Positions 31,322 through 35,108 of a stretch of DNA of 55,035 nucleotides are shown here, piece by piece; position 1 is the stretch's first letter, and every line of letters starts with the position of its first letter. Where the stretch lies: the NCBI GenBank assembly GCA_021802965.1, contig JAJZQZ010000001.1, positions 1 to 55,035 of the forward strand, read 5' to 3'. Below the pieces are notes generated by a model. The model searched no databases. It was not told the origin of the DNA and saw nothing but the letters and a program-made list of their open reading frames with translations. The position numbers were made by a program, and so were the translations under genes. The stretch is from Actinomycetes bacterium (GTDB lineage Bacteria; Actinomycetota; Thermoleophilia; RBG-16-64-13).

Positions 31322-31843
31322 CTACCAGCCGACGCTGCCCGCACCGTCTATGACCTTGACCTTGATGTACGAGACGCCGGTCCCATCCACGAGCGTGTCG
31401 ACCTGGATACCGTACCGGTTGCCGCTTTCACTGACGGAGCCCACATCGAAGGTGGTGGCGGTTTCCCCGTAGAAGTCGACTGCATCGTCCCTTGCAGAGC
31501 TTGTGACCGCATTGGTCACGAGGGGTCCGACAGGGTCGACAAGGTTATCGGGTGCGACGGTCCACTGTATGGCGGGCTCGATGGCAGTCAGATCATCCGC
31601 GCTGATCAAGCGGTAGTCGTGTCGCTCCATGTTGGCGCTTTCGACTACGGTGAGCGCGTTGCGAACAAGGGTCACAGCGGCCGCGTCTTGAGCCTTCATA
31701 CGCGTCCCCAGATACGTCGGGATCGCGATCGCTGCAAGGATGGCGATGATGATGATGACCACCAACAGTTCGATGAGAGTAAAACCCGCGTCACGACGTG
31801 CCTCGCACGCTTTGCCATGGAAGAGACGCACCATCATGTTCAT
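31322..31843 (-). CDS. type IV major-pilin-like protein, paralogue 1
   Basis: ATG 31843, preceded by AAGGGAGA, within ORF 31322..32197. Leader MNMMVRLFHGKACEARRDAG/FTLIELLVVIIIIAILAAIAIPTYLG with Glu at +5. The mature part is 153 aa with no Cys. Confidence 0.9.
   Translation of the reverse strand: MNMMVRLFHGKACEARRDAGFTLIELLVVIIIIAILAAIAIPTYLGTRMKAQDAAAVTLVRNALTVVESANMERHDYRLISADDLTAIEPAIQWTVAPDNLVDPVGPLVTNAVTSSARDDAVDFYGETATTFDVGSVSESGNRYGIQVDTLVDGTGVSYIKVKVIDGAGSVGW
31716..31786. repeat. about 71-nt near-identical segment shared with 34289..34359
   Basis: I count about 8 mismatches in 71 nt by eye. The segment encodes the pilin N-terminal helix of both paralogues. Confidence 0.85.
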
Positions 31844-33225
31844 CTCCCTTCGCGTGGCCGGGCCAACATCCCGAGAAGCAAGAAGAAGATAGTGTGGACG
31901 CCCGGGACAGTGATGGAAACAAGTGAGGCGGCAAGATAGCCGGCAAGCCCGCACATCACTGCCGCGCTCTCGGGACCGAGCGCACGGCGCAACGATTGGC
32001 GCGCCGGCTCCCGGCCGACTACGCAAAGCAGGAGGAAGCAGAGAAGGGCGCCGGGTATGCCGAGGGTGACCGCCAGGTTGAGCGGCTCTGAATGAGCCTT
32101 GTCCGCGACCACAGCCGGCCCTTCTCCTTCGTCGAACTGCGGCGTACGGTAGGACTCGAACACGGCCCCCATTTGATCGGGCCCCGTTCCGAACCACGGA
32201 CGGTCCCTGATGATTGCCAACGCGATCGCCCAGGTGGCAAGCCTACCGGCGTTGCGGGCATCACTGATCGAGACGGCGCTCGCGGCGTCTTTCGCCAACG
32301 AATGCGGCTCGACCACGACACGATCGCCACGGGGCACAAGAGAAACCGCAATGGCGAGCAGGGCGGCGACTGCAATCACTCCGATCAGGCGCCGGTAGCG
32401 AGATGACCGCGTCCACAGTAGAAGACCGACAAGAAGCAAGAGACCTCCGAGCGAACCGATCCAAGCCGCCCGGCTGAACGTGAAGTAGGTCGCAGCCAAG
32501 GTCACTCCGACTCCCGCGGTCCACAGCAACGCGGCGGCCCGACCGTCAGAACGGACGGCTCGGATCACCAAGATCGGCATCATCAATGTCAGATAGCCAC
32601 CAAGTACGACAGGATTGTGGAATGTCCCGCTGCTCCGAGCGTACGTCAGGCTCGTCGAGAGGCCGCTGAAGTCCAGACCGAAGTGTTGGAGGACCGCGTA
32701 TGCGCTGACGCCCACACATGTCAGGGCGGCGGCGTCTCCCACCGTGCGCCAGGACCGCTCGTCGGACATCGTCATGGCCGTGGCCATCACAACCAAGCCG
32801 GCGAACCATACGAGCAGGCCATCGTGCCGCAAAGCGCTACCCCAGACGGCACCCGAAGGATCGACCGACACCAGCGTCGATAGGGTCAGCCATCCTGTGA
32901 GGCCGAGGCCTACGACGAGGATCGGGCTCAGACGCGTGAGCGTGATCGTCCTCGTCAGGAGCGCGCATGCCCACCAAGCCGCCATGAGCGCGCCCAGCAG
33001 GAGAACCGCCTGCGCTTTGACGCCGTAGAAGCCGTCGAAACCGTCGGACGGATTGAAAGCGATGATGGGAATGGTGACAACGCCGGCCAATAGGCCTAAC
33101 CGCGCGGCGCCGAGGGCGCGACGTATCGCCACACACCTAGTCGAAGCCTGCTCGCTAGGGCTGCCGAGCGCGCAGCCGATGCTGCCTAGACTGGTCGAAA
33201 GCCGTACGTCGCGAGTACCTGCCAT
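31840..33225 (-). CDS. O-antigen ligase (Wzy_C) family polytopic membrane protein
   Basis: ORF of 461 aa with many TM segments. Wzy_C-like blocks YFTFSRAAWIGSLGG, RPWFGTGPDQ and KAHSEPLNLAVTLGIPG. Its stop overlaps the pilin-1 start by 4 nt. Confidence 0.8.
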   Translation of the reverse strand: MAGTRDVRLSTSLGSIGCALGSPSEQASTRCVAIRRALGAARLGLLAGVVTIPIIAFNPSDGFDGFYGVKAQAVLLLGALMAAWWACALLTRTITLTRLSPILVVGLGLTGWLTLSTLVSVDPSGAVWGSALRHDGLLVWFAGLVVMATAMTMSDERSWRTVGDAAALTCVGVSAYAVLQHFGLDFSGLSTSLTYARSSGTFHNPVVLGGYLTLMMPILVIRAVRSDGRAAALLWTAGVGVTLAATYFTFSRAAWIGSLGGLLLLVGLLLWTRSSRYRRLIGVIAVAALLAIAVSLVPRGDRVVVEPHSLAKDAASAVSISDARNAGRLATWAIALAIIRDRPWFGTGPDQMGAVFESYRTPQFDEGEGPAVVADKAHSEPLNLAVTLGIPGALLCFLLLCVVGREPARQSLRRALGPESAAVMCGLAGYLAASLVSITVPGVHTIFFLLLGMLARPREGR

Positions 33226-33789: not shown

Positions 33790-33806
33790 GCCTCCTGAGA
33801 AGCGGA

Positions 33807-33835
33807 GGGGCAGGGCTCTCAGTAAGCCCTGCCCC
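33807..33835 (-). terminator. strong hairpin immediately downstream of pilin 2 (attenuator/partial terminator)
   Basis: Perfect 11-bp stem GGGGCAGGGCT / AGCCCTGCCCC with a 7-nt loop. On the minus strand it is followed by UCCGCUUCUC, which is only moderately U-rich. Confidence 0.5.
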
Positions 33836-33915
33836 TTCCAAGAACCCAGAGTGGGCCACTCAGGTGATCAGCTCAGATCGTCCTAAGCGCTCTCTCCGGT
33901 GCGATTTTTGACCGA

Positions 33916-34398
33916 CTACCAGGTTTGCGGGTTGGCGCCGATGTAGAACGTGTTGCCCGGAGCGAACGTAGTGGCGTCAGCGCTCTTATTGACATGCACC
34001 CCGAACGTGCGACCGGATTGAGAAACGGTGCCCACTTCGTAGTTGGCGCCATCCATGCCCGAGAAGTCGACCGCATTACCAGAGGCCTGCGCGGTCGGAC
34101 CGGCGGCAACGCCGCCACCCGCTCCGGCATAGACGAAGACGATCGACGGCTCGATGTCCTCCAGCATGGGCGACACGATGAGATCGAATGCGCGCGTGTC
34201 GGTGAACGCCGACTCGACGGCGGTCATGCCGTTGCGCACTAGGGACTTGGCCGCCGCGTCCTGGGCCTTCTGCCGCTGCCCGAGGAACGTCGGGATTGCG
34301 ATGGCGGCGAGGATGGCGATGATGATGATCACCACCAACAGTTCGATGAGGGTGAAACCGCCCTCGCCCTTCATCCTCTTCGAGAGTTTGCTCAACAT
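33916..34398 (-). CDS. type IV major-pilin-like protein, paralogue 2
   Basis: ATG 34398, preceded by AGGAGG, within ORF 33916..34476. Leader MLSKLSKRMKGEGG/FTLIELLVVIIIIAILAAIAIPTFLG. Shares the C-terminal block AVDF.G......VG.VS.SG...G..V with paralogue 1. No Cys. Confidence 0.9.
   Translation of the reverse strand: MLSKLSKRMKGEGGFTLIELLVVIIIIAILAAIAIPTFLGQRQKAQDAAAKSLVRNGMTAVESAFTDTRAFDLIVSPMLEDIEPSIVFVYAGAGGGVAAGPTAQASGNAVDFSGMDGANYEVGTVSQSGRTFGVHVNKSADATTFAPGNTFYIGANPQTW
34289..34359. repeat. partner of the 31716..31786 repeat
   Basis: See 31716..31786. Confidence 0.85.
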
Positions 34399-34440
34399 GG
34401 TGCCGACCTCCTGTGTTCGAGACTGTACGCACGGCACCCG

Positions 34441-34562
34441 CAAACAAAAAGGCCTGCGGTGTGCCCGGCAAACCACAGACCTGAGTCTGGTGGCAGTCCA
34501 GCCGACCCCGTGGGCCCTGTGACTTTGCGTCCCACCCTTGCGAGTGGTTTGCCCTTTGCACC
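34441..34562 (-). promoter_or_regulatory. c-di-GMP-I (GEMM-I) riboswitch: aptamer about 34489-34562 plus intrinsic terminator 34441-34481
   Basis: The minus-strand RNA reads GGUGCAAAGGGCAAACCACUCGCAAGGGUGGGACGCAAAGUCACAGGGCCCACGGGGUCGGCUGGACUGCCACC. It carries the GEMM-I hallmarks: GGGCAAACC, a GNRA-capped hairpin, GGGACGCAAAG and a second hairpin, closed by GGUGCA/UGC(C)ACC. Downstream is GGUCUGUGG, a 13-nt loop, CCGCAGGCC and UUUUUGUUUG. Confidence 0.85.
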
Positions 34563-34571
34563 TTCGCCCTT

Positions 34572-34601
34572 AGTATGCCCCCCTAGTCAAATCCTAGACA
34601 A
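34572..34601 (-). promoter_or_regulatory. candidate promoter for the riboswitch-pilin transcript
   Basis: Minus strand: TTGTCT (34596-34601), an 18-nt spacer, then CATACT (34572-34577). This would start transcription a few nt before the aptamer. Confidence 0.3.
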
Positions 34602-34769
34602 CTTTCGCTCAACATTTCGCCCGGTGTCGAATCTGGGGCGCAACGCCGGGTCTTGGGGGACTACCGCGGACGCCAGGTCTATCGGCCACCGTAGCAGGGA
34701 GCTTTAGGGGTACGCCCTACGTCCTTGGGATGACGCCGGCGGAGGAGATAGGCCCGAGGACCGGCGGGC

Positions 34770-35108
34770 TCAGCGGCTGAGGTTCTCGAGCAACCGCGTG
34801 AGTACATAGAGGCGATCCTTGTGGTCGTGGATCGCCTTCGCGAAGGTGTCGAGACCCTGGCGAAAATCTTCGTCAGCGCACAGCTGCCATGCGCCGTCGC
34901 GGTCACGTTCGAGGGCGCCTTGTGAGGACAACCGGGCGGCCGCTTGACTCAGATCTTCCGGCCGCCGGCCGATGTCGCGGGCCAGGTCGACCACCGAAAC
35001 CGATTCCGAGGCGTGAGCCGCGAAATAGATGAGGACATCCCAGGCTTCGAACGTCGACACGTATGTGTCGACGAACTTCACCAGTATGTCCCTCTCGCGT
35101 TCACTCAT
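34770..35108 (-). CDS. small winged-helix-like hypothetical protein
   Basis: ORF of 112 aa, preceded by GGGAGG. The central stretch VSVVDLARDIGRRPEDLSQAAARLSSQGALER looks like an HTH plus wing. No family recognised. Confidence 0.5.
   Translation of the reverse strand: MSERERDILVKFVDTYVSTFEAWDVLIYFAAHASESVSVVDLARDIGRRPEDLSQAAARLSSQGALERDRDGAWQLCADEDFRQGLDTFAKAIHDHKDRLYVLTRLLENLSR

Follow-up and report, generated by a model that had tools for sequence, protein, structure and literature searches.

The 55,035-nucleotide stretch of DNA analysed here (the window; contig JAJZQZ010000001.1 of assembly GCA_021802965.1, from an actinobacterium of the Thermoleophilia) carries on its minus strand, as judged from the sequence, a class I riboswitch for cyclic di-GMP (c-di-GMP) in the leader of a type IV pilin gene. 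Our analysis suggests that this riboswitch is probably a transcriptional OFF switch for the pilin gene, in which a strand of the aptamer core serves as the antiterminator. The logic of switching off by termination is well supported computationally; termination itself and the sign of the regulation in vivo are what we infer from this logic.

A class I c-di-GMP aptamer in the pilin leader

A first-pass annotation of the window had transcribed the letters of the minus strand at 34441..34601 exactly, and on direct reading the RNA from 34562 to 34489, which it had described as resembling a class I GEMM aptamer (GEMM-I; the name refers to environment, membranes and motility, PMC1950547), is GGUGCAAAGGGCAAACCACUCGCAAGGGUGGGACGCAAAGUCACAGGGCCCACGGGGUCGGCUGGACUGCCACC. 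An Rfam cmscan search of the whole window placed a match to clan CL00126 at 34488..34562(-) with E = 1.9e-11, which is far above chance level. The best model of the clan at this position was RF03167 (c-di-GMP-I-GGC) with 59.0 bits, exactly on its gathering score (59), and in the full scan RF03167 masked one other match of the clan that had reached its own gathering threshold. The score of RF01051 (c-di-GMP-I) was read after trimming two 5´ nucleotides, upon which RF03167 falls below its threshold and the clan competition disappears; it was 53.1 bits (E = 3.8e-10, window positions 34489..34560) with a gathering score of 35, in agreement with the GEMM-I assignment of the first-pass annotation. 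A class II aptamer was discarded, since the control model RF01786 (c-di-GMP-II) gave no match at E <= 10 on 34380..34700, where CL00126 alone was listed. At the level of sequence the identity of 34488..34562(-) as a class I c-di-GMP (GEMM-I) aptamer is secure, and binding of c-di-GMP by this aptamer is predicted.

For comparison, 56 genome loci were gathered by pilin homology alone; the relatives are metagenome-assembled genomes (MAGs) of the Gaiellales/Thermoleophilia, and one locus (L001 in our numbering) is the window's own contig copy with 100% identity. The CL00126 aptamer was found in 16 of these pilin loci and was not found in the other 40. Its end lies 82–126 nucleotides upstream of the matched pilin gene in 15 of the 16; in L045 it precedes a tandem upstream pilin copy, and two near-identical tandem pilin genes follow a single aptamer. 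Eleven of the 16 aptamer loci have a terminator-type platform, and together with two metagenome sequences (L177, L124) they make up a set of 13 leaders. L124 was the one extra member of the clade that came out of a broad pattern scan of metagenomes, which otherwise returned mostly unrelated GEMM-I elements; the latter were used as a background set (n=126). L008 and four Solirubrobacterales loci combine the aptamer with another platform, and two further pilin homologues (three loci: L178 and L179-L181) have no riboswitch. In the four Solirubrobacterales MAGs (L045, L048, L050, L052) and in L008 the second hairpin is longer and a U-tract terminator is missing, and the platform of these five loci is possibly translational or Rho-dependent.

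The nucleotides G20, A47 and C92 of the Vibrio cholerae aptamer Vc2 are ligand-contact positions (PMC4744006, PMC5888326). Their equivalents in the window, G34553, A34526 and C34493, are each invariant across the 13 leaders, and the column of C34493 shows no variation in either of two alignments, A1 and A2. GEMM-Ib RNAs, which respond to cyclic GMP-AMP (cGAMP), are recognised in the Geobacter literature by an A at the position equivalent to G20. A cGAMP reading was discarded, as it requires this A and G34553 is a G that does not vary in the homologues; a G instead of an A at this position presumably points to c-di-GMP. Candidates for the universally conserved interhelical C-G pair, a tertiary contact (C44-G83 in Vc2), namely C34529 in GGGAC and a G at 34502/34503 in the GG bulge, are invariant too. 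The window aptamer lacks the segment that forms the tetraloop receptor in the RF01051 consensus; together with the GCAA loop, this fits the receptor-less half of the GEMM family that was reported at its discovery (PMC1950547).

The helices are conserved as well. RNAalifold, applied to the 13 leaders, returned a consensus made up of the GEMM-I helices and the terminator hairpin described below. In alignment A1, which holds 12 sequences, 94% of the cells were paired and 10 pairs had changed on both sides, 7 of them in the aptamer; none of 500 shuffles attained the observed values, and slid controls reached 33–45% paired. The three hairpin helices had 98–100% of their cells paired and the closing helix P1 93.8%. 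This comparison of sequences shows no loss among the contact nucleotides or helices in 13–16 genomes and indicates that purifying selection acts on them.

The clan competition leaves one question on the identity of the ligand. RF03167 is the top-scoring clan member, and c-di-GMP-I-GGC thus the assigned name, for nine leaders with an A at the A47 equivalent: the window (L001) and the eight homologues L008, L016, L018, L031, L036, L040, L050 and L052. In the homologues RF03167 scored 59.0–64.0 bits or stayed under its gathering score. The aptamer could thus be a specificity variant with a ligand other than c-di-GMP. The name GGC, as we take it, refers to the three contact positions, and at model position 37, which corresponds to A47, the consensus of RF03167 carries a G (GACGC-G-AA). 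This distinguishing position is an A in the window, in all 16 pilin-linked homologues and in the RF01051 consensus, and we therefore classed the aptamer as canonical c-di-GMP-I. The equivalents of G20 and C92 are canonical, the RF01051 match is well over its threshold, and seven close homologues were given RF01051 outright. A different ligand is thus very improbable, and the GGC label was discarded on account of the A at the A47 equivalent and of the RF01051 match. The higher score of RF03167 probably reflects the compact, GC-rich and receptor-less architecture that the window aptamer has in common with this family. As a consequence, automated annotation pipelines would mislabel the clade as c-di-GMP-I-GGC although the distinguishing nucleotide is the canonical A.

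A predicted terminator that competes with pairings of the aptamer core

Downstream of the aptamer the first-pass annotation had described a 9-base-pair stem with two G-U pairs and a 13-nucleotide loop, followed by UUUUUGUUUG. Its description was accurate: GGUCUGUGG (34481..34473) pairs with CCGCAGGCC (34459..34451), and ViennaRNA folds the hairpin as an 11-base-pair stem with a 3-base-pair extension, at -20.7 kcal/mol. All 13 leaders have a U-rich stretch behind the hairpin. The stem has been maintained by compensatory changes, with GGUCUGUGG/CCGCAGGCC in the window, GGUUCGUGG/CCACGAACC in L016 and GAUCUGUGG/CCACAGAUU in L054. A simple terminator scanner did not call the hairpin because its loop limit is 8 nucleotides and the loop here has 13. 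The intrinsic-terminator-like hairpin with its U-tract is predicted to be the expression platform, and its formation would be exclusive with pairings that involve the aptamer.

The terminator lies wholly downstream of the aptamer. Therefore a folded aptamer cannot block it, and antitermination needs an alternative pairing with aptamer sequence. When the alternative folds were computed, they supported the OFF logic put forward in the first-pass annotation, with a terminator that is clear of the aptamer and aptamer sequences as the elements that sequester its 5´ arm. The strongest conserved pairing of this kind joins GGCAAACCAC in the aptamer core with GUGGUUUGCC, which spans the end of the terminator arm and the beginning of the loop. 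The two strands are a perfect 10-nucleotide complement and the sole exact inverted repeat in the leader; the 10-mer occurs at these two sites only in the 55-kb window, with 0.10 occurrences expected by chance. All 13 leaders of the terminator type have UUUGCC unchanged in a terminator loop that otherwise varies, and L008 keeps it despite a different stem. Of the 126 unrelated GEMM-I leaders, no more than 4 have TTTGCC at a distance of 55–100 nucleotides downstream from the aptamer core.

Folding of the leaders gave a consistent picture. The GGCAAACCAC/GUGGUUUGCC helix is present in the minimum-energy fold of the full leader of the window. In transcripts that end before the 3´ arm of the terminator, UUUGCC:GGCAAA belongs to the minimum-energy fold of all 13 leaders; the full 10 base pairs form in 9 of them, and the other 4 adopt a hybrid in which GUGG pairs with CCAC of the P1 strand. 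When, on the other hand, the fold is constrained to contain the first hairpin of the aptamer and its two closing G-C pairs, 10 of 11 leaders form the terminator (L054 being the one that does not). The two states are close in energy: that of the antiterminated state relative to the terminator state with enforced aptamer ranges from 7.7 kcal/mol below to 4.2 kcal/mol above in these 11 leaders. By sequence conservation and by the folding model, GGCAAACCAC/GUGGUUUGCC is the strongest conserved competitor of the terminator.

The first-pass annotation had proposed a different antiterminator, a local hairpin in which CCACCAGAC, from the 3´ strand of P1 and the linker, pairs with the terminator arm GGUCUGUGG. 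This part of its proposal stands to the extent that the pairing exists as a computed state of the window and in some homologue folds, but the strongest conserved competitor is the long-range helix, and the local pairing may be a partial or alternative form. According to the folding model, the antiterminator is better seen as having two parts, with the aptamer core GGCAAACCAC and the linker together trapping the arm and loop of the terminator.

Proposed mechanism and its alternatives

In the mechanism that we propose, transcription would start about 3 nucleotides upstream of the aptamer, from the putative conserved promoter TTGTCT-N18-CATACT. Without ligand, sequences of the aptamer core would trap the 5´ arm of the terminator as soon as it emerges: the first half of the arm (GUCU) would pair with the linker, and UUUGCC, then GUGG, would pair with GGCAAACCAC, which would bury the G20 equivalent and the two closing G-C pairs. 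In some homologues GUGG would perhaps pair with CCAC of the P1 3´ strand instead. With the terminator blocked while the polymerase passes the U-tract, read-through would follow, and a further hairpin, H2, would then occupy the 3´ arm of the terminator. With c-di-GMP bound, P1 and the core would be locked and the 5´ arm would be free to pair with CCGCAGGCC, so that transcription would stop at UUUUUGUUUG (34450..34441). High c-di-GMP would in this way lead to less pilin messenger RNA (mRNA).

Several observations weigh against this mechanism. Nearest-neighbour calculations for the window put the terminator about 4 kcal/mol ahead even with no ligand present: the state with aptamer and terminator was calculated at -51.0 kcal/mol, the local antiterminator of the first-pass annotation at -47.0 kcal/mol and the long-range antiterminator at -46.8 kcal/mol. 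Therefore the ON state must be reached kinetically, during transcription. The long-range helix moreover demands the opening of a stable GNRA-capped hairpin. The antiterminator helix is conserved and shows changes compatible with G-U pairing but no double changes; its aptamer strand cannot vary. High-GC actinobacteria often rely less on canonical U-tract terminators. As to c-di-GMP signalling in the organism, a search of the window and of about 410 kb of related loci turned up no GGDEF or EAL motifs, a result that is uninformative in itself.

The same OFF switch could also operate with the local hairpin CCACCAGAC:GGUCUGUGG as its antiterminator, leaving no role to GGCAAACCAC/GUGGUUUGCC. This hairpin has 8 base pairs with a bulge, CCA-C-CAGAC of the P1 3´ strand and linker facing GUCUG-UGG of the terminator arm, and reaches -9.1 kcal/mol in isolation; it is predicted in nearly all homologues. 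It is easy to form kinetically, the GNRA hairpin can stay closed, and switching through the P1 3´ strand is the most frequent design among riboswitches. A small hairpin between linker and arm is predicted in 11 of 11 evaluable homologues, with linkers that co-vary with the arm (AGAC:GUCU, GGACC:GGUCU, GGAUCG:CGGUCU and AACCU:GGGUU). The local pairing is part of the full-leader minimum-energy folds of L036, L016 and L018, and it contributes to the hybrid folds of the 4 of 13 transcripts without 3´ arm. It would, however, give no reason for the invariance of UUUGCC in 13 of 13 leaders and in L008, and it would leave the perfect 10-mer complement unaccounted for. In the complete window leader its stability does not exceed that of the long-range form, and before the 3´ arm has been made it is less stable (-41.1 vs -43.2 kcal/mol). 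We therefore regard an antiterminator made of the local hairpin alone as unlikely and prefer capture by the core strand.

It might also be possible that the element acts mainly or additionally on translation or on mRNA stability. Ligand binding after read-through would allow the terminator hairpin to form, this would free GCGGGUGCC (34440..34432), and the freed strand would pair with CGGCACC in front of the AUG. In the window GGUGCCG can pair with CGGCACC, and both have changed jointly in L038 (GAUGCCGA with UCGGCAUC). The probability that the AUG region is unpaired was 0.30 in the terminator state of the window vs 0.47, and 0.26 vs 0.70 and 0.51 in L016 and L018. A relay from H2 to the start codon can be drawn for the window, L016, L018 and L038 and is inconsistent in the other leaders: the burying of the AUG is missing or reversed in most homologues, the Shine-Dalgarno sequence is not consistently occluded, and the conserved feature is the terminator with its U-tract. 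There is thus a small chance of a translational or stability effect, and transcription termination remains our preferred explanation.

An ON switch, or a relic that has decayed and lost its function, is highly improbable, even though class I ON switches (Bc2, Vc1) and non-functional members among the predicted c-di-GMP riboswitches of Clostridioides difficile have been described (PMC6366702) and closely related pilin genes (69% identity; L178, L179) lack the element, since terminator and aptamer do not overlap, a folded aptamer is unable to prevent the terminator, and no contact nucleotide or helix has been lost in 13–16 genomes, where purifying selection acts on them.

Features of the leader

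The positions of the elements discussed are compiled in Table 1. Transcription may start near 34565, 2–4 nucleotides before P1, as inferred from the conserved sequence TTGTCT-N18-CATACT. The motif tGTCTA is located at a fixed distance in the 12 aligned leaders, 18 nucleotides upstream of a -10-like box, and in the -10 region of alignment A1 the columns G31, G32, G33, A35, A37, C38 and T39 are invariant. A consensus promoter scanner did not call TTGTCT/CATACT, which has 8 of 12 matches and stays below its match threshold. Close to the start codon, AAGGAGG is kept in the aligned leaders.

H2 was part of the full-leader minimum-energy folds of the window and of 10 of 10 other leaders folded; by column count 61% of it is paired, a value that is lowered by alignment shifts. 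In the model it can arise after read-through only, and its function is a putative one.

Table 1. Elements of the pilin leader and the pilin gene (window coordinates)
Feature	Position	Strand	Basis or remark
Candidate -35 box TTGTCT	34596..34601	(-)	conservation only
Candidate -10 box CATACT (GGGCATACT conserved)	34572..34577	(-)	conservation
Aptamer P1, GGUG with CACC	34562..34559 with 34492..34489	(-)	
Vc2 G20 equivalent, contacts one c-di-GMP guanine	34553	(-)	unpaired G before G-C/C-G pairs in both Rfam models
Predicted antiterminator 5´ strand GGCAAACCAC, aptamer core	34544..34553	(-)	perfect 10-nucleotide inverted repeat with 34467..34476
Aptamer first hairpin, GCAA-capped	34547..34532 (GCAA loop 34541..34538)	(-)	
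Vc2 A47 equivalent	34526	(-)	GACGC-A-AAG; A also in RF01051 consensus
Aptamer second hairpin	34524..34495	(-)	
Vc2 C92 equivalent	34493	(-)	CUG-C-CACC; RF03167 model position 75
P1 3´ strand and linker CACCAGACUC	34483..34492	(-)	holds the partner in the local hairpin; AGAC pairs with GUCU of the terminator arm
Terminator hairpin AGGUCUGUGGU...ACCGCAGGCCU	34450..34482	(-)	ViennaRNA, RNAalifold
Predicted antiterminator 3´ strand GUGGUUUGCC	34467..34476	(-)	last 4 nucleotides of terminator 5´ arm and first 6 loop nucleotides
Hairpin H2, terminator loop and 3´ arm GGCACACCGCAGGC with GUUUGCGGGUGCC beyond the U-tract	34433..34465	(-)	
U-tract UUUUUGUUUG	34441..34450	(-)	direct reading
Shine-Dalgarno sequence AGGAGG, 8 nucleotides before ATG	34407..34412	(-)	direct reading
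Type IV pilin gene, 160 amino acids	33916..34398	(-)	Pfam N_methyl PF07963

Comparison with known c-di-GMP riboswitches

GEMM elements were linked to pili already at their discovery, through cpaA, pilM, pilO, pilQ, pulF and pili assembly genes of Geobacter (PMC1950547), and in C. difficile class I riboswitches as a rule switch off by termination (PMC6366702). The novelty of the locus was thus overstated in the first-pass annotation. GEMM-I OFF switches and the connection between GEMM and pili are known; new are the host lineage, the pilin subunit gene as target and the clade-specific platform.

Among the closest parallels are Cd1 (Cdi-1-3) and the other class I riboswitches of C. difficile, in which a GEMM-I aptamer is likewise combined with an intrinsic terminator in front of an operon for a surface or motility organelle, and which are OFF switches (PMC6366702), as is predicted here. 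The element described here differs from them in its host, a high-GC uncultured actinobacterium, in its target, a type IV pilin instead of flagellar genes, and in its GCAA loop, the lack of a tetraloop receptor and the predicted antiterminator strand GGCAAACCAC. Cdi-2-4, the riboswitch of C. difficile pilA1, likewise combines a c-di-GMP aptamer with a terminator ahead of a major type IV pilin gene, but it belongs to class II and is an ON switch (PMC6366702; PMC4744006), whereas the window has a class I aptamer and a predicted OFF switch.

Vc2 from the tfoY leader of V. cholerae, the structural reference of GEMM-I, resembles the window aptamer in the core GGGCAAACC...GNRA...GGGACGCAAAG and in the equivalents of G20, A47 and C92, with candidates for the interhelical C-G pair. 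Vc2 has a GAAA tetraloop with receptor and does not terminate transcription (PMC6366702), unlike the window element with its GCAA loop, missing receptor and terminator. The GEMM elements upstream of pili assembly genes in Geobacter and other bacteria are of the same RNA family and have a similar gene context. They mostly precede assembly genes of Proteobacteria, whereas the target here is the gene of a pilin subunit in the Actinomycetota; in addition, their terminator commonly overlaps the second hairpin (P2 in that study), for which an ON switch was predicted (PMC1950547), whereas the terminator in the window does not overlap and an OFF switch is predicted. RF03167 resembles the window element in being the best covariance model and in the architecture mentioned above and differs from it in the nucleotide at the A47 equivalent. 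Among the 126 metagenomic GEMM-I elements, a random sample, 6 from several lineages have a pilin-type gene at most 600 nucleotides downstream.

The type IV pili of Actinobacteria that have been studied so far are of the Flp/Tfpc type (PMC6916266), and our literature search found no paper tying c-di-GMP riboswitches to the Thermoleophilia. The lineage comprises uncultured high-GC actinobacteria in which type IVa pili and c-di-GMP signalling are both unstudied. The riboswitch leads to a testable hypothesis, namely that high c-di-GMP turns the pilin gene off, the reverse of the class II ON switch of C. difficile pilA1, and 13 natural leader variants are at hand for testing it. Apart from this, the element is unremarkable for its riboswitch class, which is among the most widespread, and its pili context was noted when the class was discovered. 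A far more extended scenario is conceivable, in which c-di-GMP in this Thermoleophilia/Gaiellales clade would repress a type IVa-like major pilin by a relay of helices (the core, UUUGCC:GGCAAA as a loop toehold, the terminator, H2 and possibly the start-codon region), would thereby act as a transcriptional and translational OFF switch, and would be the first case in the Actinomycetota that connects c-di-GMP with type IVa pili, with a sign opposite to that in Clostridioides; we consider this full scenario doubtful.

The pilin gene and its neighbourhood

The first-pass annotation had placed the aptamer in the leader of a type IV pilin operon, and the protein data agree with the pilin assignment. 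The product matches PF07963 (N_methyl) with E = 1.2e-8 over residues 9–35 of 160. It has the prepilin leader ...KGEGG/FTLIELLVV, and its sequence, ...KGEGGFTLIELLVVIIIIAILAAIAIP, shows a class III signal peptide, the G/FTLIE motif and a hydrophobic alpha-1 helix; more than 5000 homologues carry a PilA or prepilin annotation. The gap between the pilin gene and the upstream open reading frame (34770..35108) had been given as 370 nucleotides; it measures 371, and the ATG of the pilin gene is at 34398 instead of 34397.

On the same strand the first pilin gene is followed by a gene for a TPR lipoprotein-like protein, a gene with a Wzy_C/O-antigen-ligase domain, a second pilin gene and several minor pilin genes. 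Between the riboswitch-controlled pilin gene and the TPR gene, a GC-rich hairpin, GGGGCAGGGCU...AGCCCUGCCCC, is located at 33800..33840(-); its tail has a weak U content and is immediately followed by the AGGAGG of the TPR gene. This hairpin may work as a partial terminator or stabilise the mRNA, and might so determine how strongly pilin is expressed relative to the downstream genes. With such a strong hairpin after the first pilin gene, co-regulation of the downstream genes is therefore no more than a possibility.

The Wzy_C/O-antigen-ligase-domain gene encodes a membrane protein and lies at 31840..33225(-), between both pilin paralogues. It resembles genes for pilin O-glycosylation. The description of the locus as glycosylation-linked in the first-pass annotation has this gene as its sole basis and is unproven. 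Among relatives, L178, L179 and two loci without DNA have the gene order pilin, TPR protein, pilin, with no Wzy_C gene in between.

Upstream of the riboswitch promoter, the open reading frame at 34770..35108(-) encodes 112 amino acids with a sub-threshold match to a MarR-like winged-helix domain (PF12802, 19.7 bits; cutoff 27), and its product could be a local regulator. In an unrelated MAG, group II intron domains (RF02001, RF01998) are located beside a pilin homologue (L051, 4180..4477). The Rfam scan of the whole window detected three RNAs, which are, besides the CL00126 match, a tRNA gene (RF00005, 26781..26852(-), 70.2 bits) and a full-length riboswitch for flavin mononucleotide (FMN; RF00050, 7959..8076(-), 108.2 bits).

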